A DNA stretch of 64,000 bases. It comes from a virus (Duplodnaviria > Caudoviricetes). Of this stretch, positions 4,015 through 25,655 are shown piece by piece; positions within the stretch are counted from its first letter, which is position 1, and the number at the start of each line of letters is the position of its first letter. Location of the stretch: positions 14,683 to 78,682 of the IMG/VR virus record IMGVR_UViG_3300037722_000889; one strand, 5' to 3'. Under the pieces are notes generated by a model. That model did no database searches. It had not been told where the DNA came from and saw only the letters and a program-made list of their open reading frames with translations. The position numbers and the translations under genes were made by a program.

Positions 4015-4041
4015 TGAGGTTTGGATCCTGACATGTCAGGA

Positions 4042-4437
4042 TTAGTTAAGGTCGTAGTAGTACTCTCCGTCCGCCATGAACAGTCGACCAGTGTTCCGGC
4101 CTGCCTCCGCCTCTGCTTCGTACTCCTGCCAGCTCCACTCCCCGACGGGGTGGTCCGAGAATTCCCGCATGTCGCCGGAGATCAGTTGGATGAACAGGGC
4201 GTTCAGCTGTTGGTCGCTCCAGCCCGAGATTTCCTCGTCATCCCACGCGCCGAAGCCACGAACGTGGTCGCGCAGAGCCTCCCGCTCGTCATCGGTGGTC
4301 AGCAACTGGCTGTCTAAGGCTTCTTCCATGGCCGCGCGCCATGTGCGCGGCCCTGCCATGTCTCCGATCTCTGCCACGCTCGCCGAGAAATCCTTCGGCG
4401 TGCACTCCTTCACGAACTTCGTAATGTTGATCTCCAT
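4042..4437 (-). CDS. hypothetical acidic protein (131 aa)
   Basis: ORF with GGAGG SD; stop codon abuts the palindrome at 4025-4042. Confidence 0.7.
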   Translation of the reverse strand: MEINITKFVKECTPKDFSASVAEIGDMAGPRTWRAAMEEALDSQLLTTDDEREALRDHVRGFGAWDDEEISGWSDQQLNALFIQLISGDMREFSDHPVGEWSWQEYEAEAEAGRNTGRLFMADGEYYYDLN

Positions 4438-4445
4438 GCTCCCTC

Positions 4446-4670
4446 CTAAAGGTCAGCTGTAGCCATGATCTGGGATACCGTGGTGTCGTAGGTCCTCGCC
4501 AACATGATCACGGTGTCCAGGCAGTAACGGTTGTCCTGCGTACCGTTCTCCAGCACGCTCAGCCACCCCTGACTGATGCCGGTCATCTCTTGCACCTGCA
4601 TCTGGGTCAGCTTTGCCTGGGTGCGGTAGAACCTCAGCGCCGCGCCCATCTTCTCGTTCCACGGCCTCAT
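4446..4670 (-). CDS. XRE/Cro-family helix-turn-helix regulator
   Basis: MRPWNEKMGAALRFYRTQAKLTQMQVQEMTGISQGWLSVLENG matches the HTH_3 pattern (LR..R....LTQ..L....GISQ..LS.LENG); start re-called at ATG 4670. Confidence 0.85.
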   Translation of the reverse strand: MRPWNEKMGAALRFYRTQAKLTQMQVQEMTGISQGWLSVLENGTQDNRYCLDTVIMLARTYDTTVSQIMATADL

Positions 4671-4882
4671 GCGACGACGACCTCCGCTTCGGTTTCGATC
4701 CACACCTTGGCCCCGCAGGGCAGCGGGTTGTCCGGCCGGTACACGATCTTGCACGGCCCGTTGACCGTGACCTCGTGGCCGTAGCGGTTGGCCTTGTAGT
4801 CCTTCACCGTGATCACGGGCAGGGCAGCGCCCTTGGCGTTGGCCTTGATGTTGTGCTGGTTCACGTGGATGCGGCTTTTCAT
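4667..4882 (-). CDS. conserved small phage protein (71 aa)
   Basis: MKSRIHVNQHNIK...VITVKDYKANRYGHEV...CGAKVWIETE, a pattern I recognise from other phages; function unknown. Confidence 0.75.
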   Translation of the reverse strand: MKSRIHVNQHNIKANAKGAALPVITVKDYKANRYGHEVTVNGPCKIVYRPDNPLPCGAKVWIETEAEVVVA

Positions 4883-5796
4883 GCGGCCTCCTGCACGGCG
4901 TTGAGCAGGTCGGTGACGACCGGCGGAGCCACGGCATTGCCCAGCACGAAGTTCGCCAGGGTCTTGCTCTTGGGCAGGATGTAGGAGGAGGGGAAGCCCA
5001 TGATGGTCCGGGCCTCGGTCGGCTGGACCATGCGCATGCGATCCCCGTCGACCAGCATCCAGCGGGCCTTCGTGGTCAGGGTCCCGAGCGGGCGGTCCAG
5101 GCTTCTGCCGGTCTCCCCGGATCCTGATTTATAGAAGGGCGCCACGAACTGCTCCCCGAACCGGGCACGGCCTGCCGCGATGCGGCGCAGGGTGGCCTCG
5201 CTGCGGCCGGGCCGGTGGATCGGGTTCCACCGGTGCTGGTCCCACTCAAGGACGTCCCTGACGGGCGTGTGAGGCCGCCTGGGCAGCGCCAGCTTCAGCG
5301 GGTGCTGGGAGCGGGTGCAGACCAGGAACAGCCGCTCCCGGTGCTGGGGCACGCCGTGGTCCGCGGCGTCGAGGACGTGCGGCGAGATGGCATAGCCCAG
5401 GGCTTCCATTGCAGCGGCCCAGGCCGGGTACAACTTCCACTGGAGGAAAGCCGGCACATTTTCAACAATAACCACTTTTTCCTTGTGGACTTCAGTGCAG
5501 GTGACCACTGCCCAGGCCGTGGCCCGGGCCGCATCATGGCTGGGCCGGTCCTTGCCGCGCGCCAGGGTGTGGCCGGTGCAGGACGGGGAGGCCAGCAGGA
5601 TGTCGTGGGCCGGAACCTCGGTGAAGTTGGCCTGCTGGAGGTCCTGGCAGGCGTGGACGGTGCCTGGATGGTTCCAGGAATGGATGTGCACGGCTTCGGG
5701 CCAGTGGTTGGCAGCCCAGATGACATCGACGCCGGCCAGGGTGGCGCCGGTGGTGAACCCTCCAGCGCCGGCGAACAGATCGATTGCGGTTGGCAT
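4879..5796 (-). CDS. C5-cytosine DNA methyltransferase (orphan)
   Basis: Motif I DLFAGAGG, catalytic SPSC (PC variant), ENV, QHRERLF and GNAV in canonical order; no cognate endonuclease adjacent. Confidence 0.92.
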   Translation of the reverse strand: MPTAIDLFAGAGGFTTGATLAGVDVIWAANHWPEAVHIHSWNHPGTVHACQDLQQANFTEVPAHDILLASPSCTGHTLARGKDRPSHDAARATAWAVVTCTEVHKEKVVIVENVPAFLQWKLYPAWAAAMEALGYAISPHVLDAADHGVPQHRERLFLVCTRSQHPLKLALPRRPHTPVRDVLEWDQHRWNPIHRPGRSEATLRRIAAGRARFGEQFVAPFYKSGSGETGRSLDRPLGTLTTKARWMLVDGDRMRMVQPTEARTIMGFPSSYILPKSKTLANFVLGNAVAPPVVTDLLNAVQEAA

Positions 5797-5835
5797 TTCT
5801 TGTCTCCCTCATTGGAGTCAGTAGTTACGGTGCGG

Positions 5836-6237
5836 TCAGCCTTCGAATACTTCATCCAGGTTGATCGCAGCCCCGGTGATGAATTCCTGTGCAACGAACG
5901 CAGGCACACGATCACCGTTAGGCTGCGTGAGGTAGGTCAGAACGGTGTCATCGCACCCTTCGATGTCGTAGTCGAGCACGGCTACTTTGGGAGCGTGCGC
6001 GACGTGGTCGGAGATAACCCCCTGTACGAGCCCGCCTTCCACTACAATCACAATCCGTGGCTCTGGAACCGGAGTCTCCTTCACGCTCCTTGCTTCGACT
6101 ATGAGACGGCTCAAGGTAGTAACGGCGTCATCGTTCTCCATGAGGAACTCGGTGCCGTCCTCTAGTTCCTCGCCGTCGTAGTTCATCCTTGCTATCGTCT
6201 GTACCAGATCACTCGGAGTCATGACTGCTTCCTCCAC
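5836..6237 (-). CDS. hypothetical protein (~130 aa)
   Basis: ORF in the leftward run containing RIVIVVEGGLVQGVISD. Confidence 0.6.
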   Translation of the reverse strand: MEEAVMTPSDLVQTIARMNYDGEELEDGTEFLMENDDAVTTLSRLIVEARSVKETPVPEPRIVIVVEGGLVQGVISDHVAHAPKVAVLDYDIEGCDDTVLTYLTQPNGDRVPAFVAQEFITGAAINLDEVFEG

Positions 6238-6434
6238 AGGCTTTCATCCATTTCTGCCGCTGCACGGCGGCGAGTTGCCTTACGCTCTCGTTTCTCCTGG
6301 GCCTTCTTCAAGGCGGCGAGGTCCTCTTCAGTGGTCTGGCGCCGACCGGGCAGGGTGACCGGCTTGAACAGCCGGGTCACCGCCTCCGGCCCGGCCAGGC
6401 CGGCGAGCATGGCGAGCAATTGCGGGGCCTGCAT
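6219..6434 (-). CDS. hypothetical basic protein (71 aa)
   Basis: ATG preceded by GGAGG; C-terminal LKKAQEKRERKATRRR. Confidence 0.55.
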   Translation of the reverse strand: MQAPQLLAMLAGLAGPEAVTRLFKPVTLPGRRQTTEEDLAALKKAQEKRERKATRRRAAAEMDESLWRKQS

Positions 6435-7045
6435 GCTGCCTCCTTGACCTTGGCCTTGGGCTTGCTGTTCAGGGCGGCCTTCACCTTGTCGTCGGTGACG
6501 GCGAGCGCCTTGGTCTGCGGCTCGATCTTGGGCAGGAAGCCCGCCAGGGACGGGTAGTTCTCCTGCACCTGCTTGTAGGTGGTACATCCGGCCAGGGCCT
6601 GGTTGACGGCGTCAACCAAGGTGCTCTTCTTGTCGGCGATCTTGGTGCCCTTTTCCACCAGCTTCATCAGCTCCTTGTAATCGGCGGAGCCTTCTTCCAC
6701 CTTGAGATCCAGGCCGTACTGCTCGTCGGCCACGCATCGGGTCTCGTTCAGCGGCCACCAGCGCGAGTGACACATGCTATGCACCGGATTGTTTTGCCGG
6801 CTCTGGCGCCTGCCCTGGTCGTCCTTATTGACGGGCCACACCGGGATTTCGCAGTAGTTGCGGGTGGAAAGCATGCCGGTGGGAGCGGCAGCGATCCAGG
6901 CCATGACTTCTGGTGGATACCGTTTCGCAGCCAGGGCGGCGGTGAAGACCTTGGCCTCTTCCACGAACGCTGCCTTCAGCGGCTCGATCTCCTTATCCAG
7001 GATGGCGGTCAGTACCTTCTTGCGGATTTCGTTGGTAAGTCTCAT
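6377..7045 (-). CDS. Nmad5-like (nucleotide-modification-associated domain 5) protein
   Basis: Starts MRLTNEIRKKVL and ends ALAGCTTYKQVQENYPSLAGFLP, matching the Nmad5 termini as I recall them; start re-called at 7045 after the extended SD. Confidence 0.7.
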   Translation of the reverse strand: MRLTNEIRKKVLTAILDKEIEPLKAAFVEEAKVFTAALAAKRYPPEVMAWIAAAPTGMLSTRNYCEIPVWPVNKDDQGRRQSRQNNPVHSMCHSRWWPLNETRCVADEQYGLDLKVEEGSADYKELMKLVEKGTKIADKKSTLVDAVNQALAGCTTYKQVQENYPSLAGFLPKIEPQTKALAVTDDKVKAALNSKPKAKVKEAACRPRNCSPCSPAWPGRRR

Positions 7046-7092
7046 TGCGGTTCCCTCATTGGAGTGATAGTTACGATCCTGACATGTCAGGA

Positions 7093-7515
7093 TCAGTCGA
7101 TGGCCGAGAAGATGTCGGTCGCCTCGGGATGGTCGTAGGCGTACGCCATCAGGCGGTCGTAGGCGTTGCGGATGGCATCCGAATCGTGCCCGCTCCACAT
7201 CAAGTGGTTAAAGGTGAAGATGCAGACGATAATGCCGGCCGCATCCGGACTGACATCGCCCCCGTAGCAGTTACCATCTACCTCGATGTGCAGCTTGCCA
7301 TCCGACTTCGGATACATGTAGCCGCCGCCGTTGGACAGCTTGACGAACTCCCAGTACCCGCCCTTGTACCCTTCAATCAACCGTTCCGCCATGGAGTAGA
7401 TGGCGTACTCGACGGTCAGCATTTCACCGCCAAACAGGCCCGGCAGGAAGTTCAAGCGATCGTGCTCGGCTACGTGGTCAGCAAAGACTTTCTGTTCTTC
7501 GATAGATTCATTCAT
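7093..7515 (-). CDS. ArdB/KlcA-family antirestriction protein
   Basis: RLNFLPGLFG...VEYAIYSMAERLIEGYKGGYWEF..LSNGGGYMYP...SPDAAGIIVC...LMAYAYDHPEATDIFSAID is the characteristic KlcA/ArdB pattern. Confidence 0.9.
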   Translation of the reverse strand: MNESIEEQKVFADHVAEHDRLNFLPGLFGGEMLTVEYAIYSMAERLIEGYKGGYWEFVKLSNGGGYMYPKSDGKLHIEVDGNCYGGDVSPDAAGIIVCIFTFNHLMWSGHDSDAIRNAYDRLMAYAYDHPEATDIFSAID

Positions 7516-7532
7516 GGCAATGCCCTCATTGG

Positions 7533-7706
7533 TTAAAATAACAGTTCATCCACGTAATCGGGCTCCAGCCCGTACTCGTACAGCAGCTCTTCAGGATCGT
7601 CGGACCCTTCAAGCACTTGCCGGCGCATGTCCTCGACCAGGTCGTTGGCTACTTCCCGTGATAGGCCGTCTCGACGCACCAAAATGTCAGCGATGGATTC
7701 CGTCAT
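7533..7706 (-). CDS. small acidic hypothetical protein (57 aa)
   Basis: MTESIADILVRRDG...YGLEPDYVDELLF with GGAGG SD. Confidence 0.65.
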   Translation of the reverse strand: MTESIADILVRRDGLSREVANDLVEDMRRQVLEGSDDPEELLYEYGLEPDYVDELLF

Positions 7707-7969
7707 GACGCTTCCTCCAGCGGCCGCCTGGTGCGGGCCAGCCTGTAGGGCGGGTTCGCAATAGACAGGTTGCGCCACTGCTCTATAGCCTGGTAAGCCC
7801 GTGTAAACTCCGGCGAGACCTTCGTGCCTTCTTTCTCATATATTTCCATCGCCCGGTGCAGCCACCCATACGCTACGTGCAGCGCACTGATGGGGTCACT
7901 CTCCGTGCCGTGCTTGAGGCCGCATTCAATCGCCTTGGCCAGTTCCGTTAGTTCGTCTTTGCGTCTCAT
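7703..7969 (-). CDS. hypothetical protein (88 aa)
   Basis: ATGA-coupled to both neighbours. Confidence 0.55.
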   Translation of the reverse strand: MRRKDELTELAKAIECGLKHGTESDPISALHVAYGWLHRAMEIYEKEGTKVSPEFTRAYQAIEQWRNLSIANPPYRLARTRRPLEEAS

Positions 7970-8127
7970 GACACGCCCCTCCAGAACCGCTGCTCGTGAC
8001 GACGGCGCGCAGCCTTGCGCCACCGCTTCGTCAGGTAGGGAGGGACGTAGTCAGACACGAATGCCAGGAAGGCGAACGCAAGACACAGGACGGCGAGTAC
8101 GCCGGAGACTACGAACAGTGTTGCCAT
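7966..8127 (-). CDS. small single-TM protein (53 aa)
   Basis: Own translation MATLFVVSGVLAVLCLAFAFLAFVSDYVPPYLTKRWRKAARRRHEQRFWRGVS; extended SD upstream; below the ORF-track cutoff. Confidence 0.65.
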   Translation of the reverse strand: MATLFVVSGVLAVLCLAFAFLAFVSDYVPPYLTKRWRKAARRRHEQRFWRGVS

Positions 8128-8169
8128 TGGAACCTCCTCATTGAGGTGTGATCGGTCTAGAATCTAGAC

Positions 8170-8427
8170 CTACAGTTGATAGCGGTCGTAGTTGCGGATC
8201 GCGGTGCGCTCGACGTAGTTCTCGACGAGCTGGACTTCTTCCCCTGCCGCCTCCTTGGCCTGCCGGAAGAGGGATGCATCGCAATCCTCTTCAAGATACA
8301 CCGTTTCCCCTCGCTGGTACGAGTAGGACGAGACCTTGTCCAGCAGGTTGAGGCGGGCCAGCTCGCTGCGCTTCACGTGCAGCCAGCCGTGGCCGGGGTC
8401 GGATGTGAAATGGTACTTGGTTTTCAT
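8170..8427 (-). CDS. conserved small phage protein (DPGHGWL motif)
   Basis: MKTKYHFTSDPGHGWLHV...YLEEDCDASLF; stop codon abuts the family-X element. Confidence 0.75.
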   Translation of the reverse strand: MKTKYHFTSDPGHGWLHVKRSELARLNLLDKVSSYSYQRGETVYLEEDCDASLFRQAKEAAGEEVQLVENYVERTAIRNYDRYQL

Positions 8428-8843: not shown

Positions 8844-8854
8844 GGTGGTTCTCC

Positions 8855-9295
8855 TCAGTTAGTTTGAAACTCTGACATGCCAGACGGCTCGTGGTGTCCT
8901 TCCAATACCAGCAGACAATAGTAATTGTCTGGGTCGCCTTCATAGTGGTGCAGCTTCGCGGCCGTGCGCTGAGCCAGCTCGACCACGGTGGCAAGGTCAA
9001 CAGTGATCACCTGGACGTAGTACGTATCCTGCCCATAGTTGTCCGCCAAGTCATCCGGCAGCAGCAGCAGGACCGAGTACTTGCCTGCTTCGCTTTCCTG
9101 CTCTACCGGGGTTACGACGTATTGCGTCGGCGCCGGCAGTTCCTCCTCTTCCTTGGGCTCGGCAGCCAGCCGGAACTGCAGTTCCAGCCCGGCATGCCGG
9201 GCCAAAACGGCCAGCTCACGTACCGTAGTGTCTTCGTCCTGCAGCGCCTCGCCCAGTGCTGCCAGTTTCATGCCGTGGTCTTGAATGCTCGTCAT
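8855..9295 (-). CDS. hypothetical protein (146 aa)
   Basis: AGGAG SD before ATG 9295; 3' end runs through the degenerate palindrome at 8872. Confidence 0.6.
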   Translation of the reverse strand: MTSIQDHGMKLAALGEALQDEDTTVRELAVLARHAGLELQFRLAAEPKEEEELPAPTQYVVTPVEQESEAGKYSVLLLLPDDLADNYGQDTYYVQVITVDLATVVELAQRTAAKLHHYEGDPDNYYCLLVLEGHHEPSGMSEFQTN

Positions 9296-10186: not shown

Positions 10187-10197
10187 GCCCGTTCTCC

Positions 10198-10443: not shown

Positions 10444-10444
10444 G

Positions 10445-11327: not shown

Positions 11328-11506
11328 GGCTTCTCCCTCCAGGCGTAGACCTGGGGTCGGTCGTACCGTTGCTCGTGCTCGTTCACCACTTCCACGGCAT
11401 GTTTGGCGGATGCCAGGGTGAAGTGAGTTTCCAGCACGATGTCGGTTGCGGTGTTGTAGACCTCGTAATGGTCATGAGGGCTGATGGCGGGCGGGTTAGG
11501 TCTCAT
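11324..11506 (-). CDS. hypothetical protein (60 aa)
   Basis: ATGA-coupled to the RadC-like gene. Confidence 0.5.
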   Translation of the reverse strand: MRPNPPAISPHDHYEVYNTATDIVLETHFTLASAKHAVEVVNEHEQRYDRPQVYAWREKP

Positions 11507-12009
11507 ATCAGACCCCTTTCCGCGAAGCTCACGGTCTCGGTGCCGCCCACGACGATGTGATCCAGGACCCGCACGTCGATCAGGCGAGACGTATCCTGCA
11601 GCCGGCGGGTGAGGGTCTGGTCGGCCTGGCTGGGCTCCGGCACGCCAGACGGATGGTTGTGGTAGAGGATCACCGCGGCGCTGTTGTGCGCCAGCATGGA
11701 CTTGGCCACCTCACGGGGGTACCCGCTGGCCCCGTCCAAGGTGCCGCGGAACAGCTGCTCGTCCTCGATCAGCCGGTGACGGTTGTCGAGATGGAGCATG
11801 CCGAACACTTCGTGCTCCAGCAGGGCGATGTGCATGATGAGGTGGTCCTTGACCATCTGCGGCGAGGACAACGGGTCGGTGGCGCGGGCCATGCGGTTCT
11901 GCAGGATGATCTTGGCCTGCTCGATGATGAGGTTGTCCGCCACGGCAGCCGGGGCCTGTGCCGGGAACAGCTGGTACGTGGGGGATGTTTCTGACTTGAC
12001 TTTGTTCAT
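11503..12009 (-). CDS. radC: RadC-like JAB-domain protein (UPF0758)
   Basis: EHEVFGMLHLDNRHRLI...YPREVAK...AAVILYHNHPSGVPEPSQADQTLTRRL...VRVLDHIVVG, including the JAMM HxH-x10-D motif. Confidence 0.92.
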   Translation of the reverse strand: MNKVKSETSPTYQLFPAQAPAAVADNLIIEQAKIILQNRMARATDPLSSPQMVKDHLIMHIALLEHEVFGMLHLDNRHRLIEDEQLFRGTLDGASGYPREVAKSMLAHNSAAVILYHNHPSGVPEPSQADQTLTRRLQDTSRLIDVRVLDHIVVGGTETVSFAERGLI

Positions 12010-12063
12010 GGTGCTTCTCCTCAGTGAGAAGCGATCCTGACATGTCAGGATCGCGGTGGTTGG

Positions 12064-13525: not shown

Positions 13526-13579
13526 CGCATTTCTCCTCGTTGAGAGTGGCGGTCTAGAATCTAGACCGCCGTAGGTTGG

Positions 13580-15252: not shown

Positions 15253-15319
15253 CTTCAGTTCTCCTCATTGAGAAAGTTGGTCTAGAATCTAGACCGGGTT
15301 GGATCCTGACATGTCAGGA

Positions 15320-15931
15320 TCAGTACGGTGCTACTATTTCACATTGCGCCAGCGGCACGGGCAGGTGTTCCGCCATGCCGTTGGTTTCCGGATCGGACCC
15401 GTAAAAGCCACAGCAGCTGTCGGTCTCCTCCTCATCCTGCTCCAGGACGAAACCGTACACGTCGCCCTGGATGAACTGGTCGTATACCTTGACCTCGCTC
15501 TTCAGGCGCTGGCTGACCTTGTCCCACAGGCTGGCGCTGATCCGCTTCTTGCCGAACTCGGCGCGCACCTTCTCCGGGGTCACGAAGATCACACCGACCT
15601 GGCCAGAGTCCCAGGGGCAGGAGAATCTCTCCGTGCTCATGGTAATACCGGAATGGTCATACAGGTACAGTGGCAGCAGGTAGATGCCACACTCTTCGGC
15701 CGTGTCGGCCAGGGTTGCGGGCCGGTCGAAGTCCCGGTAGTCGTCGCTGCGGTAATCCTCCCAGGACTCGCGGTACTTCTTGCTGCTGCGTACCGCTTCC
15801 TTCAGCTTGTCCACGCCATCCTTGTCACCGAGGTTGTAGCGGCTGTGCCAACAGGCCATGGTACCGAGGTTGTCCCAGTCACGCGGGCTCTCCGCGTCCT
15901 GGTCGGGGATGATCTTGAGTACGTTCTTCAT
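15320..15931 (-). CDS. conserved hypothetical protein of mobile elements (203 aa)
   Basis: ESPRDWDNLGTM...LYLYDHSGITMS...CPWDSGQVG...VYDQFIQGDVYG...DSCCGFYG. Confidence 0.75.
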   Translation of the reverse strand: MKNVLKIIPDQDAESPRDWDNLGTMACWHSRYNLGDKDGVDKLKEAVRSSKKYRESWEDYRSDDYRDFDRPATLADTAEECGIYLLPLYLYDHSGITMSTERFSCPWDSGQVGVIFVTPEKVRAEFGKKRISASLWDKVSQRLKSEVKVYDQFIQGDVYGFVLEQDEEETDSCCGFYGSDPETNGMAEHLPVPLAQCEIVAPY

Positions 15932-15966
15932 TCGCGTTCTCCTCATTGAGAAAGTTGGCCTAGGTT

Positions 15967-16248
15967 CTAGACCGCGGCGTAGCGGGGTACGAAGAAATTC
16001 TCCAGCTTGCCGGTCTCCCGGTTCAGGTGACGGGCGATGCCGTTGACGTCGTGCATCAGGTCGTGGTCTTCTGCGTTTGCCAGCCCGCTCAGACGCAGTG
16101 GCGTGTGCAGGTGAACGGCCGCCAGGTCCATCTGCACGCCGAGCCGGTCGACACTGTACCCGTAGTGATCAGCCGCGATCTTGCGCACTCGCGCAGTGAT
16201 GACATCTACGTGTATCCGTTCTTCTTTGGTGAATGTTGCAAATTTCAT
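15967..16248 (-). CDS. DUF6874-like phage protein
   Basis: MDLAAVH...LRLSGL...DLMHDVNGIARHLNRETGKLENFFVPRY. Confidence 0.75.
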   Translation of the reverse strand: MKFATFTKEERIHVDVITARVRKIAADHYGYSVDRLGVQMDLAAVHLHTPLRLSGLANAEDHDLMHDVNGIARHLNRETGKLENFFVPRYAAV

Positions 16249-16285
16249 GATGTTCTCCTTGGGTTGAAATCCTGACATGTCAGAG

Positions 16286-16930
16286 TTACCAGTAATCCCG
16301 TTCCACTTCCTCGCAGGTGGCATACCCGCCACCGTACCTCAGCCTGAACTCCTGGCCTACGTGCTCCGCGTGCTTGGCACGCGGGTCCACCGCTTTTGCA
16401 ATGGCCCAGAACTGCTGGTTGGCCTTGCCGATGTCTCCGAACCGGCGCTTGGCCAGGTTGTAACCGTGGCGCAGGAAGTGCAGGGAGTCCGTCCAGAACT
16501 GCGGGTCCACCTCGATGTCAGGGTCCATCCCTCTCATGCCTACGTCGATGATCGTATGGAATGCATCATCACAGTCGTGCCGGCGGGTACGCGGCACCGG
16601 CATCCGGTACGAACACCCGTTCGCGTAATACCCCGCCAAGCTGGCCGCATCCCTTGCGAGGTTCTCTTCCGCCGAGTACATGTTGCCCTGGCCATCCCGG
16701 CTCAAGTCGCTCCACTCGCCGCGCACGAACCACACGCCTCCCAGCGCCACCAGCTCGTCACCGACCGAGCCAATCGCCTTCAACCCATACTGGTGCTCCA
16801 GCAGGTCATGGGCGATCAGCAGGCCTTCCCTGGCGACCATCGGGGTTTCAATCATGCGCACGTCCTTGCACATCAGTCCCAGCTCTCCGAGACATATGTC
16901 CTCCCGCACTACCAAACTCACGCTTCTCAT
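16286..16930 (-). CDS. hypothetical protein (214 aa) between two chimeric palindromes
   Basis: Extended SD before ATG 16930; stop abuts the element at 16272; contains IAHDLLEH. Confidence 0.7.
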   Translation of the reverse strand: MRSVSLVVREDICLGELGLMCKDVRMIETPMVAREGLLIAHDLLEHQYGLKAIGSVGDELVALGGVWFVRGEWSDLSRDGQGNMYSAEENLARDAASLAGYYANGCSYRMPVPRTRRHDCDDAFHTIIDVGMRGMDPDIEVDPQFWTDSLHFLRHGYNLAKRRFGDIGKANQQFWAIAKAVDPRAKHAEHVGQEFRLRYGGGYATCEEVERDYW

Positions 16931-16977
16931 GGTTACCCTCCTCATTGAGGTATTGAAACTCTGACATGTCAGGACCG

Positions 16978-18250: not shown

Positions 18251-18296
18251 TGTCTTCTCCTCATTGAGAAAGGTTGGGAATCCTGACATGTCAGGA

Positions 18297-18791
18297 TCAG
18301 GCAGGGGTGGCTTCCTTCAGCACCTTCTCGATGTGGCTCCAGATAGGATGCCGGCAGATGAACTTCCATTGCCCGCTTTCCAGCAGGTGAAGACTGAAAT
18401 AGGACTGGCCTGCTGTCATCTCGATCTTCCACAAGTTGCTGCTGCCTTCTACGGTAGCGATCCAAGCCAGGTTGTTGCCGACCGTAGGGATAGTCTGCGT
18501 GGTGATCTTGCGAGGTGGCGCTGTCGGCGGCCCGTCAATGTACTCAAGAGTGGTGCGGATACTTACGGCGAGCGAAGACTCGTCCTGCCCGTTCTCCTCC
18601 AGCTCGTCCAGCAGCCGCTGCGCCAATGCGTACAGCTCCGGTGCCATGCGCATCAGCCTTCCATTCGCCTCGGCTTCCTGCAGGCCGATGGATCGGCTAC
18701 ATTCGCGACCGGCGCTGTAGTACAGGTAATCCTCGTCGTCATCTTGGACCGGCCCGAAATCGGCCCAAGGGCCTTGGGTAAATTTTGCCAT
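18297..18791 (-). CDS. phage protein with 'TxGPW...ANARLI.AAPEL'-type motif
   Basis: MAKFTQGPW...EAEANGRLMRMAPELY; bounded by P elements at 18283 and 18815. Confidence 0.7.
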   Translation of the reverse strand: MAKFTQGPWADFGPVQDDDEDYLYYSAGRECSRSIGLQEAEANGRLMRMAPELYALAQRLLDELEENGQDESSLAVSIRTTLEYIDGPPTAPPRKITTQTIPTVGNNLAWIATVEGSSNLWKIEMTAGQSYFSLHLLESGQWKFICRHPIWSHIEKVLKEATPA

Positions 18792-18846
18792 GCTCTTCTC
18801 CTCAGTGAGAAACTCTGACATGTCAGAGTTTGTGATGGTCTAGGTT

Positions 18847-19032
18847 CTAGACCTCGACGTTGCGCCGCCGGATACGGTCAAGCAACTGGGCGCAGGTAAG
18901 GTCGTTCTCTTCTATCTCGTCCACCAGCTCTGGGCAGTCGAACATGGCGTCATACGCTTCCTCCGTCTTCCCGTGCCGGTGCAGGTTGAGGATCATCCGC
19001 TCAACCACGGGCTGTGGATACCTCTCGCTCAT
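18847..19032 (-). CDS. hypothetical protein (61 aa)
   Basis: Stop lies inside the X element at 18839. Confidence 0.55.
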   Translation of the reverse strand: MSERYPQPVVERMILNLHRHGKTEEAYDAMFDCPELVDEIEENDLTCAQLLDRIRRRNVEV

Positions 19033-19642: not shown

Positions 19643-19644
19643 GG

Positions 19645-19851
19645 CTATGTCTCCTGCACGTCGTCAACACTCCACTGACCATCACGCACGGAGTAGCCAA
19701 ACTCCTCACACGCATCCTCCGAAGCCTCCACCTTTCGCTGGGCTTCTTCCGCACTCTCCGCCTCCACCAGATGCATCAGGGTGCGGTTGTCGGTAACGTA
19801 CACTCGAAAGGTTTTCAGTCTGAGTTCTTTATTCACGGTGCTTCTCCTCAC
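19645..19851 (-). CDS. hypothetical protein (likely GTG start at 19836)
   Basis: GAGGAG SD at 19844-19849 just downstream of the X+P composite. Confidence 0.55.
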   Translation of the reverse strand: MRRSTVNKELRLKTFRVYVTDNRTLMHLVEAESAEEAQRKVEASEDACEEFGYSVRDGQWSVDDVQET

Positions 19852-19881
19852 TCTAGATTCTAGAATCCTGACATGTCAGGA

Positions 19882-20322
19882 TTACCAATCAAATATCGGG
19901 AACAGGTTCTTGTACAGCTCTGCGTCCCGGTCGAACATGACGTAGCGGTGGCCCTTCTTACGCGCCCAGGCCAGGATGTCGTCCAGGTACGGGCAGCCCA
20001 TGCTCTCTCCCCTGCGCATGGCGTTGGGGTCGGTGTAGGTCAGCCAACCATATTCACCCAGACTATAACTGATGCAATTATCCAGGCTGCCTTCATCCAA
20101 CTTCTCCGCCGTTTCCTTCGGCACGTGGCCGGTAGACAGGATCGGGCAGGTGAAGGTCTCGACTTGGGTCTCTGCACGTGCCAGTTGCATTCGCAATGCT
20201 TCACACTCTTCGCGCAGAGTGAGGAAGGTCTTGACTCCGGCTTCCTGTTTCAGCTGTGCCATCTCTTCCCGCAAGGCTTCACACTCCTCGCGCCAGGCGC
20301 GGTTCGACTTGACTTCTGCCAT
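19882..20322 (-). CDS. hypothetical protein (146 aa; N-terminal coiled coil)
   Basis: Bounded on both sides by X+P composites; C-terminal YVMFDRDA motif. Confidence 0.7.
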   Translation of the reverse strand: MAEVKSNRAWREECEALREEMAQLKQEAGVKTFLTLREECEALRMQLARAETQVETFTCPILSTGHVPKETAEKLDEGSLDNCISYSLGEYGWLTYTDPNAMRRGESMGCPYLDDILAWARKKGHRYVMFDRDAELYKNLFPIFDW

Positions 20323-20361
20323 GATTTTTCTCCTTACTCTAGGTTTTAGAATCCTGACATG

Positions 20362-20763
20362 TCAGGATTGCTCGCTCTCCGCCACTGCTCGGCGCATGAT
20401 CCAGTGTGCCTGATCCAACAGGGCCAGGGCTTGCGTGGTCAGCGCGCATGGTATGGGCGGCAGGTCTGGCCTGGCTTCATCCGTCTCCAGTTGGTAATGC
20501 AGCTTTTCAATTTGCTGCGCCTCTTCCAACAGCCACAGGTTGGCAGGTGGTCGATCCCGCTCGTACTCCTTGCGTGCATCTTCCAGCCACTGCACCGCTT
20601 CAAGCAGGGAGGAGCGCGTGGCAAAGCCTTCTTCCCTGCCGTCCTCGTGCTTCAGCATGATCTCGAATGCATTCCAGGTGAGTCGCTCGATGACCCACAC
20701 CTGTGGACCGATTAGATACTGCCAACAGTGAGGGCCAACTATGGTAAGAGTGTTGGCGCGCAT
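20362..20763 (-). CDS. hypothetical protein (133 aa)
   Basis: Uses the TGA inside the P palindrome (20362-20364) as its stop. Confidence 0.6.
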   Translation of the reverse strand: MRANTLTIVGPHCWQYLIGPQVWVIERLTWNAFEIMLKHEDGREEGFATRSSLLEAVQWLEDARKEYERDRPPANLWLLEEAQQIEKLHYQLETDEARPDLPPIPCALTTQALALLDQAHWIMRRAVAESEQS

Positions 20764-21089: not shown

Positions 21090-21250
21090 ATCGTTTCTCC
21101 TCATTGAGAAACTCTGACATGTCAGAGTTTCAGGCGTTGATCCAGTGCCGTTGGAAGCGGCGGATATACCGCTTCTGCTGCGGCCAGGGGACCGGCAGGA
21201 GGGTGCAGAGGGCGCACTGGTTCCTGCCGGTGGTAATGAACCGCAGCGGG

Positions 21251-21448
21251 TTACAGGGCATACCGGGTAGCCTGGACATGAATGTGGCGCTTGGGCAGGC
21301 GGTGGCGTGCATCAGCCACAGCTTCCAGAAGCTCCGCACGGGCCTCCTGAGCGGCGATCAGGTTCTCGCGGGTGGCGCAGTCACGCAGGCGCTTGCAGGC
21401 CTGGCGGTAGGCGAGGCGCAGGCAGGTGAGGGTGTAGAGGTTCTTCAT
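21251..21448 (-). CDS. hypothetical protein (65 aa)
   Basis: AGGAG SD before ATG 21448. Confidence 0.5.
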   Translation of the reverse strand: MKNLYTLTCLRLAYRQACKRLRDCATRENLIAAQEARAELLEAVADARHRLPKRHIHVQATRYAL

Positions 21449-21552
21449 GGCTTTCTCCTTCATTGGAAATGCACCACTGGGATTCCCCTGGCCTCAATGC
21501 AAGGGGGAGTGGTGCTGGTTTGGGTGTAACGTATATCAGTTCGAGGGTATAT

Positions 21553-21798
21553 TCAAGCGGCCTCGGCCTGGGCGTTCGTCCGGGCCAGCTCCCGGCGCAG
21601 GTAGGCCTGGGTGACCGCGGAGTCGCTCAGGTCCGTCGCTTCCTGGCAGGCATAGCCGGCCAGGTAGATGTTGATGCCCCTTACCTTCTGGGCAGTCTCA
21701 TTCCACGCCTCTGGCGTGTCGCAGCCTTCGTTGCAGTCCCACAGGAAGATGAGGGTCTGCTCCAGGTTGTCGAGTTCGGCTTTATCTTCAGGGGTCAT
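21553..21798 (-). CDS. hypothetical protein (81 aa)
   Basis: AGGAG SD upstream. Confidence 0.6.
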   Translation of the reverse strand: MTPEDKAELDNLEQTLIFLWDCNEGCDTPEAWNETAQKVRGINIYLAGYACQEATDLSDSAVTQAYLRRELARTNAQAEAA

Positions 21799-21882
21799 GA
21801 TGGTCTCCTTCATTGGAAAGGTCGGATCGTCCGACAGGTTGATCCCGATATGTCGGAAGGGTGGATCCTGACATGTCAGGAT

Positions 21883-22188
21883 CTAGGTTCTAGACTCGCT
21901 GGCCTCCTTTACTGCGCCTACGAAGGCGGCAACATGCTGGGGCAGGTCCACCGGCTTTCCGGACAGTGCGGCTTCTTCGAATCCGCCGGCAACCTCCAAG
22001 GCGTCCAGTATCCCCATGGGCTCCCCGGTCACCTGGTAGTACAGCGCGCTCAGGGCCATGCCGGCGCATTCCAAGGCCCCTTGCGCGTACAGGTTCTGGC
22101 CGTCGTCCTCCCCCTCGATTCGGTCCATCGCGGCGCCGAGGATGATTCCAGTTACGAATGCAAGCTGCTCGTGGCTCATTGGGTGCAT
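21883..22188 (-). CDS. hypothetical protein (101 aa)
   Basis: Bounded on both sides by P+X composites. Confidence 0.65.
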   Translation of the reverse strand: MHPMSHEQLAFVTGIILGAAMDRIEGEDDGQNLYAQGALECAGMALSALYYQVTGEPMGILDALEVAGGFEEAALSGKPVDLPQHVAAFVGAVKEASESRT

Positions 22189-22288
22189 AGTGCTCTCCTT
22201 GGTTGGGATCCTGACATGTCAGGATCTAGGTTCTAGGGCTGCCGGCCTTCATAGGGGAGGGCGGCGGGGCCGGCTTGCCGCGTGGCCG

Positions 22289-22320
22289 GTTGCGTGACTT
22301 GTTGCGTGACTTGTTGCGTG
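22289..22320. repeat. tandem 12-bp direct repeat GTTGCGTGACTT (2.7 copies)
   Basis: Read directly at 22289-22320. Confidence 0.9.
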
Positions 22321-22489
22321 TCGATGCCAGCGGTGGTTTACAACTGGCTAAAAAAGCAACAGTGAAAATTATTTGTCCTAGCTAATATTGGCTAGACTCA
22401 GTCTAAACCGGAGCCTGATTTTGCCTGGCTTTTTGGCAGGTGAGGCTCCTCGGCCTGAAGTGTATTAGAGTTTCTGCATACTGGCACTA

Positions 22490-23043
22490 ATATTATTAGG
22501 AGCTTCTAATAATTTTCGGAAAAAACGTGTGTAATGCCTTATTTTAAGGGGTGAGAGGCACGTGGATTCCGTCCGTGGAGCGGCGTGTAATCGTGTAATG
22601 AAGGGAGGGTGGCGGTGGTGGAACCCAAGCAGGGCCTGGCTTTACACCGATTACACGAGTTACACAGTGAAAGTGAACAAAAAGTTTCTCTGCCTCACCC
22701 AGTTTAGGCCCCACCCCAGTTTCAGGAAGAAAATTTCCCGAAATCGTGAATTTTTGGGGTTCACCATAAAATTTTAGTGGACTGCACTTTGCAAAGTTGT
22801 GAAGCGTTTTCAATCTTGCTTGGGTATAAAACGGGTAGGGGGTCAAAACTTTTTATTCACTTTCACTGTGTAACTCGTGTAACTGGTGTAAAGCTTTACC
22901 CTGCCTGGGTTTCACCACCGCCATCCTGCCTTCATTACACCATTACACCCTCATTTCCCAACCAAATCCACCTGCATCTCGCCCCTTAAAATAAGCTATT
23001 ACACACGTTTTTTCCGAAAATTATTAGAATCTCCTAATAATAT
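22490..23043. repeat. long imperfect inverted repeat, ~198-bp arms (22490-22687 / 22846-23043) with a ~158-bp spacer
   Basis: For example TTATTAGGAGCTTCTAATAATTTTCGGAAAAAACGTGTGTAAT pairs with ATTACACACGTTTTTTCCGAAAATTATTAGAATCTCCTAATAA, and TTACACGAGTTACACAGTGAAAGTGAA pairs with TTCACTTTCACTGTGTAACTCGTGTAA. Confidence 0.93.
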
Positions 23044-23130
23044 ACGTACGCGTATATATTAGCCCTTCATCATATTCGACCGTCAAAACGGCCTGGACCT
23101 CCCGATCGGCGCCTGCCCTTCAAAAATCGC

Positions 23131-23178
23131 TTGACAGGCCCGGAAATTCGACGTAACCTGCGGTAGCAGGTTACGTCG
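23131..23178 (+). promoter_or_regulatory. sigma70-type promoter with overlapping palindromic operator
   Basis: TTGACA(23131)-N17-TAACCT(23154); perfect inverted repeat CGACGTAACCTGC-ggta-GCAGGTTACGTCG at 23149-23178. Confidence 0.7.
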
Positions 23179-23243
23179 GGGAAAATGGAGAACAACAGGA
23201 GAACACGGGGTTAAACCCGGTATCTCAAATACTGGTTTACATC

Positions 23244-23289
23244 TTGACTTTCGCCCAGAGGGCGAGTAACCTCGGCCCGAGGTTACTCG
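23244..23289 (+). promoter_or_regulatory. second sigma70-type promoter with the same operator architecture
   Basis: TTGACT(23244)-N17-TAACCT(23267); perfect inverted repeat CGAGTAACCTCG-gcc-CGAGGTTACTCG at 23263-23289. Confidence 0.7.
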
Positions 23290-23303
23290 TTCACCACTGG
23301 ATT

Positions 23304-23630
23304 TCAAAAATTGCTGGCCTTCATTCGGTTCAGCAGCTCCCGCCACCGGTTGTACCCCTTCACTTCCCGCCGCGCCACCCTGAACATCCGAGCGTGCTGC
23401 GGGCTGCACGGGTAGGTCAGGTGCACGTCGATGCAGGTCAAGATCGCGACCTTGTCCGTGATCCCCATCCGCAGTGCCAGCAGCTGCCGGTCGATCCAGT
23501 CGCCATCGGCGACCAGGTGCGGCGTGAGGAAGCACTCGCCACCGGCAGGGGAGGGCGGGTATTCAGTGGCCAGACGGACGGCCATGGCGTGATACGTTGA
23601 CATTGGGATTGCTCCAGTGTGGGAAGGCAT
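23304..23630 (-). CDS. hypothetical protein (~100 aa)
   Basis: Only plausible ORF in this interval; weak SD. Confidence 0.45.
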   Translation of the reverse strand: MPSHTGAIPMSTYHAMAVRLATEYPPSPAGGECFLTPHLVADGDWIDRQLLALRMGITDKVAILTCIDVHLTYPCSPQHARMFRVARREVKGYNRWRELLNRMKASNF

Positions 23631-24804
23631 TTCTGCCAGCCTTCCGTTCGTTTTTGCCAGCCTTCCGTTCGTTTCGGCGGCCAGCGCCTGTGACTCCCAG
23701 ATGCCGCCTCACCACCGATGCCCACAGCGCCCCTGGCCGGCGGTGCCGGCTTTTCAAGGGGAGTGGGTAGGGCAGTGGTGAAGCGACATGAGGCAGTGCC
23801 CAGGGCTTGGGTCTGCGTGAATGCGTCGAACCTGCAACTCACCACCGATCCTGACATGTCAGGATCGACCAGGTGCCGCGGATGGCACGCGCCGGGGTCG
23901 AAGTCCGGCTCCGCCCGTACGTCGGTGAGAGGTACGGTGGTGAGGTCCCTGCAGGGGACAATATGATTGGTCTCCCGGTATATTGTTGACCGGGTACCAC
24001 GCGGTTATCCAAGCGCATGGGCTCGCCATGCTAGTAGGCATTTTCGGTGGACCGCTCCACCGTCAGGGCATCCTAGTGTCTCGCACGCCGTGGTCACCAC
24101 GTGAAGGGAAAAATTCAGTGGCGACGGTAGGCGATTCAGATGCGTAGCATGCAGGAGGACGCACCGCCCCTTTCGAGGGGTGTGGCCTATGTGAGTATAA
24201 GCTGGCATGGGGTGCCCAGCGACGGTGGCCCGATTCTGTGCTCGCCGTTCGACGAGTCTCGGTTTCGGATCGCTACTCTCCTGCTATTACCTGACCACCG
24301 GTTTTATTGGTACCAGGAAACCGGCAAAGGAACTGGAGTCTTGACGGCGCTCCACTCTGGTCAAGTGGTCCCGGGGTATCATTCCGGCCACTTTTCCGCA
24401 TTACCTCCCGTCGATATGGGACGGGTACCGGCTACCGCGTGCCACGGTGCCCGAAGGGCCACAACCCTTCGCTTCCTTGACTTCCCTTTGTAGTCCGCAC
24501 CAGATGGACGGCTCCTGCCTGCACGCCCCCACGTCGATGCTACCGTGACCACGTGTCCATCTGAAAACCTGTATGCCAGCGCCCAGCGCCAGGCCCGGGC
24601 CAGTGGCCGATCCTGACATGTCAGGATCACCGCTGGCCGAGAAATTGTGCCCGCGCACCAGGCAAAACCCTGGCGCCGGGGAAAACGCCCACGCGCCCGG
24701 GAAAAGCCCGGCGCGCGGGAAATCACCACCGGCCAGCCGGCGGGAGACTGAATCCTGACATGTCAGGATCGCCCTTTTGTGTGCGCACGCACGCACGCGC
24801 ACAC

Positions 24805-24833
24805 AAAAAGGCCCGCCCGGCAAGCCGGGCAGG
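24805..24833 (-). terminator. putative intrinsic terminator downstream of the 24877-25605 gene
   Basis: Minus strand CCTGCCCGG-cttg-CCGGGCGGG followed by CCTTTTT. Confidence 0.6.
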
Positions 24834-24876
24834 ATGAATAGGGGAAGCCCGCCGGGAGTGCCGGCGGGCTATGGGG

Positions 24877-25605
24877 TTACGCGCGGAGTCGGCGCGCGGT
24901 CTTTTCGGCGTCCGTCTTGTGCTCGGGGGTTGCCTTGGTACCCTTGGGAACGGCTACCGGCGCGGCGGAGTCGATCGGGATACCCTTGGAAGCCTTGCGC
25001 GGCTTGCGGGTTGCCTTGGGCTTGCTGGCCTTTGCCATGGCGTCAAATTCACGCGCCAGTGTGGCCAGCGTTTCTTTGCTAAGCCCTTTGGCCAGTTCCC
25101 GGATAACGTCCGGGAGGTTCAAGCCATTGGGTACCATGGCGTCCCGTACCGGCTTGCATACGTCCGCAACGGACAGGCGCACCGGCTGGACCTGTTTCGG
25201 CTGGCCGTTGCTGGGAGTCGTTGTGGCGGGTGCTTCCGGCTCAGCCTTGGCGGGTGCTTCCGGCTCAGCCTTGGCGGGTGCCATGGACAGGTCCAACGGG
25301 AATTCATAGACCCCAGTATTTGGATAGCGTTTCATCTGGCCAGCCGGGAACAGGAAGCCAGAATCAGTAACGGCGCGGCGTATCAGACGCTGGCAAGAGT
25401 TCCATTCTGTGTCCGTCAAGTCTTTCATGATGGCAACCATGGAAGCCTGTCGGCTTGCGGCGTCCGTACTGGCCGGAATGGTTGCGTCCGCGCGGACAAT
25501 GGCGCGCAGTCCAAGGCTGAAATTTTCGGCACGGCCCAGAGCGACGCGGAATTCAATCAACAGGCTGGACACGGTAGCGGTCTTAAGATCGAAAGTATTT
25601 TTCAT
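24877..25605 (-). CDS. first gene of the leftward arm, hypothetical (242 aa; Ala/Lys/Pro-rich linker)
   Basis: AGAGGG SD; AKAEPEAP repeated twice; directly downstream of the P copy at 25635. Confidence 0.65.
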   Translation of the reverse strand: MKNTFDLKTATVSSLLIEFRVALGRAENFSLGLRAIVRADATIPASTDAASRQASMVAIMKDLTDTEWNSCQRLIRRAVTDSGFLFPAGQMKRYPNTGVYEFPLDLSMAPAKAEPEAPAKAEPEAPATTTPSNGQPKQVQPVRLSVADVCKPVRDAMVPNGLNLPDVIRELAKGLSKETLATLAREFDAMAKASKPKATRKPRKASKGIPIDSAAPVAVPKGTKATPEHKTDAEKTARRLRA

Positions 25606-25655
25606 GGCGTAAACCCTCTTTGGTTTGTGTGATCCTGACATGTCAGGATCTGGGG

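Follow-up and report, generated by a model that had tools for sequence, protein, structure and literature searches.

We analysed a window of 64,000 nucleotides (nt), corresponding to bases 14683-78682 of a 78,682-bp IMG/VR virus record (IMGVR_UViG_3300037722_000889) that CheckV rates as 94% complete. The source is an uncultured sediment phage with the layout of a siphovirus, as assigned by family searches and by our own simple coding-potential gene calls, on which all statements concerning the placement of repeats rest. The structural arm begins at ~26.5 kb, runs rightward and includes the TerL gene (29435-31147), the product of which is 35% identical to TerL of both Pseudomonas phage PMBT3 and Vibrio phage SHOU24. 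A long leftward arm begins at ~25.7 kb and contains small, mostly orphan genes, followed at its far end by the replication genes (ligase, thymidylate synthase, dNMP kinase, primase, SNF2 helicase and PolA). This early arm is punctuated by many copies of a short palindrome, here called P1, which is our subject. The genes identified in the P1 region encode ArdA (7093-7515), a C5 DNA methylase (4879-5796), RadC (11503-12009), Nmad5 (6377-7045), DUF5983 and DUF6874; judged by their family assignments, these are typical early or anti-defence cargo.

The 12-nt core of P1, CTGACATGTCAG, is present in 17 exact copies in the window where 0.00 are expected (100 shuffles), and all of them lie in the leftward arm between 4.0 and 25.7 kb. 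These are the number and the limits reported in an earlier note made from the sequence alone, and the exact coordinates agree. That note had also seen no copy among the virion and right-arm genes, and our scan of the whole 78,682-bp record, including those genes, found no further copy anywhere. Its presumption that the motif is specific to this DNA is likewise upheld: the 16-mer TCCTGACATGTCAGGA, comprising the core and the commonest flanks, has 109 matches in 596 Gb of prokaryote genomes, approximately the chance number, and these are always single, with no genome holding a cluster. Pattern scans with the extended motif across IMG/VR, JGI metagenomes and 185,579 species genomes gave single matches only, at about chance level and on unrelated contigs. 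P1 is a genuine repeat that is specific to this phage and does not extend beyond one arm.

Sixteen of the 17 cores are situated fully outside called coding sequences, while the core at 20354 holds the stop codon of the upstream gene. With a coding density of 0.88 across the dense part of the arm (4.0-22.25 kb), the intergenic position of 13 out of 13 copies is far beyond chance. At these gene junctions (13 of 17 copies) a stop codon 0-5 nt upstream of the element, or within it, is followed by the palindrome, a ribosome-binding site (RBS) and ATG. The remaining four (25635, 24755, 24613 and 23851) adjoin leader or non-coding segments rather than stop codons, being located in the leader of the first gene, after the terminators of that gene, and on both sides of a 750-nt segment without open reading frames (ORFs). 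The earlier statement that the palindrome almost always occupies a junction of the order stop, palindrome, RBS and ATG is thus accurate for 13 copies and not for these four. Of the stop codons said to abut or overlap the element, those at 4042, 7093, 15320, 16286, 18297, 19882, 20362 and 21883 do so, and that at 21130 relies on a doubtful ORF of 69 amino acids (aa). P1 density falls with distance from the promoters, with 13 copies in the first 10 kb and four in the next 11 kb, and the number of genes per block between copies rises from 0-3 in the promoter-proximal half, where the description of one gene or a small block per interval is apt, to 6-15 distally, where it is not. The blocks do not differ in composition and include only one tandem pair of paralogues. 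No P1 copy overlaps a promoter or falls in the divergent, non-transcribed region upstream of the promoters.

The core is identical in all copies; the flanks vary from copy to copy yet stay complementary. The unit had been taken to be 12 bp long, which is too short: the full element is a palindrome of 18-24 bp with two classes of flank, type A (GATC..GATC) and type B (AAACT..AGTTT). Most copies take the form (G/A)ATC-core-GAT(C/T) and two the form (G)AAACT-core-AGTTT(C), while three reach perfect palindromes of 22-24 bp in which the outer letters differ (GCGATC.., CGATC.. and GAAACT..). On the coding strand P1 is a potential stem-loop, with the apical 12 nt providing 4 bp and a CAUG loop and the basal stem adding 3-6 further pairs; the predicted folding energy is -1.1 kcal/mol for the core alone and -9 to -10 kcal/mol with flanks. 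When the 17 copies are aligned, column pair 5/24 is GC in eight copies, AU in five, GU in three and unpaired in one, and columns 7/22 and 8/21 each show two double changes, in the type-B copies. The covariation score is 0.232 compared to 0.157±0.023 in shuffled alignments and was reached by 1 of 500 shuffles; cells changed on both sides number 15 compared to 6.9, a count reached by none of 500. Slid-register controls gave pairing in only 25-45% of cells.

All copies are given here on the minus strand, numbered from the far end of the arm. Copy 1, the last of the arm (4025..4042, core 4028-4039), comprises a TAA stop, TC and the core, and then come CTCAATGAGGAGG and ATG. Copy 2 (7075..7094, core 7079-7090) is a 20-bp palindrome abutted by the TGA stop of the ArdA-like gene, copy 3 (12031..12054, core 12037-12048) is the 24-bp perfect palindrome GCGATC..GATCGC, and copy 4 (15302..15321, core 15306-15317) precedes both a second hairpin, P2, and a hairpin containing the Shine-Dalgarno (SD) sequence. 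Copies 5 and 6 are hybrids: the former (16272..16283) joins a type-B left flank (TAACT) to a type-A right flank (GATT) and forms a weak hairpin, and the latter (16961..16972) joins a left flank resembling type A (GGTC) to a type-B right flank (AGTTTC). Copy 7 (18280..18297, core 18283-18294) is a junction copy; copy 8 (18810..18831, core 18815-18826) is a type-B, 22-bp palindrome (AAACT..AGTTT) preceded by P2; copy 9 (19864..19883, core 19868-19879) has the flanks AATC..GATT with P2 directly after; and copy 10 (20350..20369, core 20354-20365) is the one with the upstream TGA stop inside its core. Copy 11 (21108..21131, core 21114-21125) is the type-B, 24-bp palindrome GAAACT..AGTTTC. Copy 12 (21864..21883, core 21868-21879) is preceded by a P2 containing a TAG stop, and copy 13 (22207..22226, core 22211-22222), also preceded by P2, stands where the densely coding part of the arm starts. 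Copy 14 (23846..23867, core 23851-23862), a 22-bp palindrome, and copy 15 (24609..24628, core 24613-24624) form the 3' and 5' borders respectively of the ORF-less segment 23863-24612; copy 16 (24752..24769, core 24755-24766) comes directly after the terminator hairpins at 24772-24833; and copy 17 (25631..25650, core 25635-25646) lies in the 5' leader of the first gene, ~105-120 nt downstream of sigma-54-like promoters. A copy with one mismatch, CTGACATGCCAG (8872..8883, minus strand), is found within the last codons of the gene 8855-9295 and is possibly a decayed P1.

The second palindrome, P2 (GGTCTAGAWYCTAGACC), has nine copies between 8.1 and 22.2 kb, which stand before P1, after P1 or alone; its 7-bp stem is kept and its 3-nt loop is variable (AUU, AAC or AAU). 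There are ~20 junctions with a gap of at least 30 bp between 4 and 22 kb, of which 13 carry P1 and four more carry P2 alone. All P2 copies are on the minus strand. Those at 8154..8170 (GGTCTAGATTCTAGACC) and 13551..13567 occur at junctions without P1, that at 15279..15295 is downstream of P1 copy 4, and a variant at 15957..15973 (CTAGAACCTAGG) contains a TAG stop, as does the copy with an AAC loop upstream of P1 copy 8 (18837..18853). P2 at 19850..19866 comes directly after P1 copy 9, the pair reading CTGACA-18-TAGAGT, and a degenerate P2, CTAAAACCTAGA (20336..20351), directly after P1 copy 10; the copies at 21880..21896 and 22223..22239 are upstream of P1 copies 12 and 13 respectively. The 13 junctions have a modular order without translational coupling, namely stop codon, P1 hairpin, optional P2 hairpin, SD-containing hairpin and ATG. 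The RBS is often enclosed by a UUCUC..GAGAA hairpin that would sequester the SD, and the short word CCAAC recurs. The extended SD CTCAAYGAGGAG, which had been counted as part of the repeated unit, is a strong RBS context used genome-wide, being found also 5' of late genes (27006, 38585, 61422 and 63757), and is no part of the P1 repeat.

At the head of the early arm, on the minus strand, are two tandem promoter cores of the sigma-54 type (25821-25836 and 25764-25779), both with an exact TGGCAC-N6-TGCA. The two, TGGCACGCCTCCTGCA and TGGCACGGTACCTGCA, are 57 bp apart, and ~0.1 exact match is expected in the window; a phage early operon driven by sigma-54 would be unusual and would require an enhancer-binding protein. 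TTGACG/CGTCAA inverted repeats are found just downstream (about 25650-25720). The first early gene (24877..25605, minus strand) encodes a 242-aa orphan with a basic C-terminal tail, a candidate partner for P1, and is followed on the same strand by two GC-rich terminator hairpins with T-runs (24772..24833), the only convincing intrinsic terminators of the leftward arm. The GC-rich, 750-nt segment 23863..24612 (minus strand), between P1 copies 14 and 15, contains no credible ORF and matched nothing in Rfam or by distant blastn; it is a candidate non-coding RNA. The predicted fold of 23845-24630 is closed by a 26-bp P1-P1 duplex, an instance of the pairing open to two identical palindromes in one transcript, and such a duplex would suit RNase III; without its P1 ends the segment has a fold z-score of only -2.2. 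Across the whole window no Rfam family attained its gathering score, and there were two sub-threshold chance matches in 21.5-26.6 kb. ARAGORN called a tRNA-Arg(GCG) at 21143-21239 (plus strand), in a 161-nt gap adjoining P1 copy 11; at 97 nt, on the non-coding strand and with no Rfam support, it is probably false.

At the opposite end of the P1 region, the third gene downstream of the last P1 (3114..3632, minus strand) encodes a phage sigma-70-family factor with regions 2 and 4; at 172 aa the protein is ECF-sized and probably drives middle or late genes. Beyond it, a gene at 865-1458 (minus strand) encodes a 197-aa protein with an N-terminal CsrA domain (Pfam E = 7e-9), an RNA-binding regulator that might act on GGA-rich leaders. 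P1 marks the early module, because its last copy (4028) is succeeded, two genes later, by the sigma-70-family gene and after it by the CsrA-domain gene.

No close relative of this phage was found in the collections searched. When 8 kb of the arm was compared by megablast with 50,697 phage records nothing matched, and protein-guided scans with a 416-aa early protein and PolA found no relative; in a set of 5.8 billion proteins, both this early protein and the first early protein are orphans. A sister lineage comprises two IMG/VR contigs, L125 and L126, with TerL ~50-55% identical and a homologue of a 154-aa protein. The palindrome of these contigs, of 21-27 bp, is (GGC)TAACTCCAAC-N-GTTGGAGTTA(GCC), which is unlike P1, and its outer arms, AACTC/GAGTT, match the type-B P1 flank. 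Its positions are the leader of the first gene in the leftward direction, the point directly after this gene (where TAA forms part of the palindrome), either side of an intrinsic terminator, and junctions further along. More distantly, in SHOU24, with PolA and TerL 34-35% identical to those of this phage, the early/replication arm holds all 13 copies of YTTGGTCTSAGACCAA, and phage K449 has 36 palindrome copies in the order stop, palindrome, spacer, extended RBS CCAGTAAGGAAC and ATG. The palindrome common to SHOU24 and K449, placed in both between a stop codon and the extended RBS with its ATG, is TTGGTCTNAGACCAA, the arms of which (GGTCT/AGACC) recall P2. Pseudomonas phage PMBT3, which has no such repeat, is an exception. 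This architecture is, on this evidence, common to a broader set of phages, each lineage having a sequence of its own.

The only detectable homologue of the first early protein is P0004 (E = 2.5e-5), on an 871-bp contig, and the leader of that homologue carries a related 20-bp palindrome, GGTCAGACATATGTCTGACC. A single-sequence AlphaFold model of the first early protein was unreliable (pLDDT 44) and its Atlas neighbours are unnamed viral clusters; homology with the first protein of the sister lineage was unsupported (BLASTP E = 0.045; hhalign probability 0.6%). A palindrome in the TerL relative L011, CCTCTGCAGAGG, was discarded as irrelevant, being within a repeated coding domain. In another TerL relative, the IMG/VR contig L023, three copies of CTGTTCG-CAATGT-CGAACAG within 100 bp (548-660) adjoin a TTGTCAAGG box and look like clustered operators of its control region. 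Unrelated phages that share a phrog_6186 gene (L086, L038/L040, L043-L047 and L059) each have their own repeated palindrome near early genes, for example TCTGTAATTACAGA in four copies beside TTGACA/TATACT promoters, or AAACTCTAGAGTTT in three. Lineage-specific palindromes in early regions appear to be common.

The comparison of gene-gain and gene-loss breakpoints among relatives, which the earlier note had proposed, is possible for the SHOU24 group. SHOU24 and vB_VpaP_1601 are 98% identical, and a 755-bp segment with a DNA methyltransferase gene, which in SHOU24 lies between the palindrome copies at 26527 and 27297, is absent from vB_VpaP_1601. At this junction vB_VpaP_1601 has a single copy, with the left flank of the first SHOU24 copy and the right flank of the second, and phivp505_B shows the same single-copy state. 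This indel lies exactly between copies. Among the other indels between SHOU24 and vB_VpaP_1601, two have junctions in the conserved RBS and one has neither, while three gene indels between SHOU24 and phivp505_B begin at or directly after the palindrome and RBS and end elsewhere. The conserved extended RBS of the SHOU24/K449 phages, CCAGTAAGGA(A/C), is itself an indel junction between close relatives (in SHOU24, for example, 4491/4520 and 74849/75212). As a whole, these indels follow the pattern of the promoter-early stem-loop (PeSL) cassettes of T4-type phages, in which regulatory repeats are short-homology exchange points, and not that of site-specific recombination. Two further pairs were set aside: between K449 and 264E42.1, seven of ~40 homology ends are no more than 25 bp from a palindrome, which is not counted as evidence because mosaic ends fall at gene borders anyway, and K437a and K449 are uninformative, their early arms differing mainly by an HNH endonuclease gene.

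Within the phage itself, the hybrid copies at 16272 and 16961 bracket a single gene (16286-16873) in a reciprocal arrangement of half-sites, and look like what would remain if a type-A site and a gene with type-B flanks had crossed over within the core. Four sediment sequencing runs contain the phage, with Logan contigs identical to the window. These contigs break at some P1 copies, as expected because the repeats are longer than the assembler's word. Three joints in Logan contigs (6409/8966, 11575/11643 and 16761/20856) are supported by one contig each, with short sides of 21-28 nt; none is at P1. No excision signal was found and no RNA run is listed among those that contain the phage, which is uninformative on excision and on expression. 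Nuclease subunits like SbcC and SbcD (59279-61414 and 62694-63749, minus strand) and another DNA repair exonuclease (56774-57952, plus strand) are also encoded in the window; such recombination functions could act on hairpins and bring about exchange at short homologies.

An invariant loop and apical stem combined with a covarying basal stem is, in an alignment such as this, the signature of a stem-loop read by protein. It favours a hairpin over a plain dimer operator, because a homodimer binding half-sites on duplex DNA needs no joint change of both halves. The structural and positional hallmarks of a protein-read RNA hairpin, namely a conserved loop and apical stem, a covarying basal stem, and sites in the leader and between cistrons downstream of promoters, where transcription is to be expected, are found in P1. 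Our tentative reading, which we hold with a little less than even confidence, is that P1 may be a lineage-specific, hairpin-forming punctuation element of the leftward early transcription unit, with a role at the RNA level most likely. P1 would work as a stem-loop, formed in the RNA or in transiently single-stranded nucleic acid and recognised by a specific factor, and would delimit cistrons by setting processing sites or the stability of 3' ends; alternatively, it may bring about read-through of terminators in the manner of lambda N and nut. That P1 acts in RNA is inferred, and so are which factor, if any, binds it and what precisely results. The earlier note had offered a repressor site and an RNA-processing site as equals, besides recombination; a regulatory role does seem the more likely primary one, and flank covariation favours the hairpin over a duplex site of the stoperator type. 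P1 would most likely serve gene expression primarily, and recombination would be a passive side effect: since the copies are identical they may double as short-homology joints, at which early genes would be gained, lost or exchanged. An elaboration, which we think unlikely, is that the palindrome and a fast-evolving early protein constitute a multi-site hairpin-reading system, active at every cistron boundary in antitermination or in mRNA punctuation or processing, and existing as lineage-specific pairs, one each for this phage, the sister lineage and the SHOU24/K449 Vibrio phages. If that were so, the same hairpins would make the early anti-defence genes exchangeable modules.

Several observations weigh against the hairpin. 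That 12 nt are fully invariant across 17 copies is seen more typically in a site read by protein than in a purely structural hairpin, and it needs either a sequence-specific reader, none of which was identified, or concerted evolution. The hybrid copies (16272 and 16961) fold poorly yet have a perfect core, which fits recognition of the core as duplex better. Independent covariation events are few (two type-B copies, one G:C/A:T alternation and three longer extensions), and related copies can score above shuffles without any structure. P1 hairpins lack following U-runs and are therefore not classical terminators. As to their service as joints, the recombination evidence comes from relatives with a different palindrome, and both junctions fell inside copies in only one of the indels examined. 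Because the hybrids keep the core and fold poorly, and because independent changes are few, the hairpin is favoured only modestly. The main rival is an operator in duplex DNA resembling stoperators or the phiC31 conserved inverted repeats (CIR), in which a dimeric phage regulator, possibly the first early protein, would bind the 12-bp palindrome and block elongation by RNA polymerase to shut off or time the early arm; we regard this as possible, though less probable than the hairpin. In its favour, the core is perfectly symmetric and invariant in 17 copies, including the poorly folding hybrids; each lineage has a separate sequence, as expected where site and binding protein coevolve; and a related palindrome does precede the homologue of the first early protein. 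Precedents are the many-site repressors of Cluster A mycobacteriophages (PMC9283540) and the 34-copy, 17-bp palindrome of Cluster O (PMC4351075), and a phage with its own sigma factor and a temporal programme might plausibly shut off its early genes. Nevertheless, flank changes that preserve complementarity are not expected where half-sites are recognised independently, and conservation is highest in the central 12 bp, where just 6 bp separate the half-site centres, against ~10 bp for the half-sites bound by typical helix-turn-helix (HTH) dimers. Moreover, no copy overlaps a promoter, the leader copy being ~105-120 nt downstream of the sigma-54-like sites, and a Pfam scan of 60 non-structural proteins (including every called left-arm protein of at least 100 aa) detected no HTH, ribbon-helix-helix or repressor domain and no integrase.

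The same scan bears on the idea of a dedicated recombination or mobility system, akin to integron attC sites or to REP/RAYT (REP, repetitive extragenic palindromic), in which a phage enzyme, recognising P1 as a folded hairpin, would take up, cut out or shuffle cassettes. Identical, hairpin-forming repeats at the borders of cassette-like genes, one gene flanked by hybrid half-sites and an exact palindrome-to-palindrome gene indel in relatives all agree with such a system, and the many orphans of the arm could hide an unfamiliar enzyme. The 60 proteins, however, include no tyrosine or serine recombinase, HUH or RAYT-type transposase, or integrase domain; P1 lacks the hallmarks of attC (GTTRRRY ends, extrahelical bases and imperfect long stems), of which the earlier note had seen that the ends are missing and had denied that this is a classical integron; most indels in relatives have one junction at the palindrome and the other at the RBS or elsewhere, and therefore fit short-homology or illegitimate recombination rather than site-specific exchange; and distal blocks contain 6-15 genes. 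We consider a dedicated system improbable, and of the cassette platform that had been proposed, passive joints are retained, on the strength of the SHOU24-group indels and the hybrid half-sites, and the integron-like machinery is not. Least probable is that P1 is a promoter element of the PeSL kind, from which host RNA polymerase or a phage sigma factor would start transcription at each junction. CTGACA, present on both strands of the core, is one base off the sigma-70 -35 hexamer TTGACA, P1 and P2 at copies 19868 and 20354 read CTGACA-18-TAGAGT, and the phage does encode a sigma-70-family factor. The other 15 copies, however, lack a conserved -10 at any constant position, core-to-RBS spacing ranges from 5 to ~60 nt, several junctions leave no space for a transcription start upstream of the SD, promoter-like matches number 6 compared to 5.5 in shuffles, and the sigma gene is downstream of the entire P1 region. 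Two other candidates were dropped. Binding of CsrA/RsmA to CAGGAUC of type-A copies is at odds with the lack of GGA in type-B copies and the position of the motif within the stem, and the spacing of LexA, lux-box and CRP-type host operators does not fit.

Other features of the window are recorded here for completeness. An AT-rich island at ~22450-23100 (GC ~0.5) has ~60-bp inverted-repeat arms and nested inverted repeats (for example GTTACACGAGTTACACAGTGAAAGTGAA and its complement), with CACGCAACAAGT direct repeats beside it at ~22290-22330; the region could be an origin or a promoter hub. Iteron-like repeats, ATTTTGG / GATTT(C)GG, occur in the divergent region between the early and late arms (26080-26260). 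Upstream of TerL, at 27018-28916 (plus strand), is a 632-aa tail-fibre-like gene with a GC3 of 0.61 compared to ~0.85 in its neighbours and a 46-residue stretch ~70% identical to Rhizobium and Vibrio phage tail proteins; it looks recently acquired.

Early, fast-changing genes for host takeover and anti-defence (ArdA, C5 methylase, RadC and Nmad5) lie between P1 elements, and if the palindromes both set the expression of each cistron and offer points of exchange, this would explain how, in this phage group, a stable regulatory frame is kept while its cargo is swapped. The presence of an analogous element in cultured Vibrio phages, SHOU24 and K449, makes the mechanism accessible in a tractable host, and a P1-type element could be a simple marker of the early module in uncultured relatives.

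Among known systems, the integron has in common with P1 an array of promoterless genes whose 3' ends carry sites able to form hairpins. For P1 there is no IntI among the 60 proteins scanned, nor are there R/L boxes, extrahelical bases or a Pc/attI platform, and attC stems are variable in sequence and imperfect where P1 copies are identical, perfect palindromes; on these features P1 is not an integron analogue. REP elements, palindromes present in many copies directly after stop codons, stabilise the upstream mRNA and have a GTAG-type head and a RAYT partner; there is no GTAG head in the P1 alignment and no RAYT-type domain in the proteins scanned. The order of promoter, leader hairpin, gene for a first small basic protein, and terminator mirrors pL-nutL-N-tL1 of lambda, by analogy and not as a finding, but lambda has two nut sites against 17 P1 copies and the first early protein, at 242 aa, has no detectable similarity to N. 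The phiC31 CIR are many intergenic sites bound by a repressor that blocks elongation, and P1 resembles them and the stoperators in having many identical sites in short intergenic gaps of transcribed regions. Stoperators of Cluster A are asymmetric, orientation-dependent 13-mers bound by a monomeric repressor in temperate phages (PMC9283540). P1 is not a stoperator in the strict sense because stoperator sites are asymmetric and orientation-dependent; it is palindromic with covarying flanks, and no repressor or HTH domain or integrase was detected in the proteins scanned, though most early proteins are orphans.

PeSL cassettes of T4-type phages combine a strong sigma-70 promoter with a working terminator (PMC2839356, PMC4122927). 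As in P1, short conserved stem-loop repeats separate small, non-essential early genes; recombination is a by-product of a regulatory motif, as it probably is for P1, and the repeat-bounded indels between close relatives are matched here by those of the SHOU24-group palindrome. P1 forms a predicted stem-loop of -9 to -10 kcal/mol with no U-run after it and has no associated promoter (no -10 at a fixed distance, and promoter-like matches at shuffle level), and because of this lack of promoter and U-run it is not a PeSL; nor were mini-circles seen for P1. Closer in form is the 17-bp palindrome of the Cluster O mycobacteriophages, TGTTCGGNNNCCGAACA, in 34 copies (PMC4351075), which shares with P1 invariant, orientation-neutral inverted repeats that number in the tens and are found for the most part at the junctions between genes in a long leftward operon of non-structural genes. 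It differs in that many copies are inside ORFs and in both arms, in that its central 3 bp vary whereas the centre of P1 is invariant and the outer pairs covary, and in that the phages and their hosts are unrelated to the P1 phage. Cluster K mycobacteriophages have an extended conserved RBS (SAS) with upstream inverted repeats (ESAS) (PMC3203893), restricted, as P1 is, to the non-structural half of the genome, with an inverted-repeat consensus that differs between sublineages; the same logic is seen in CTCAATGAGGAG with P1 and P2 here, and in the corresponding RBS and palindrome of K449. ESAS have imperfect 17-bp arms and spacers of 4-13 bp and are tied to SAS, whereas P1, a palindrome both compact and perfect, goes with the stop codon upstream of it; the extended SD, for its part, is found without P1 as well. 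P1 resembles the unexplained repeats of Clusters O and K in copy number, in restriction to non-structural genes and in its lineage-specific consensus, and is a lineage-specific variant of an already known type of phage repeat.

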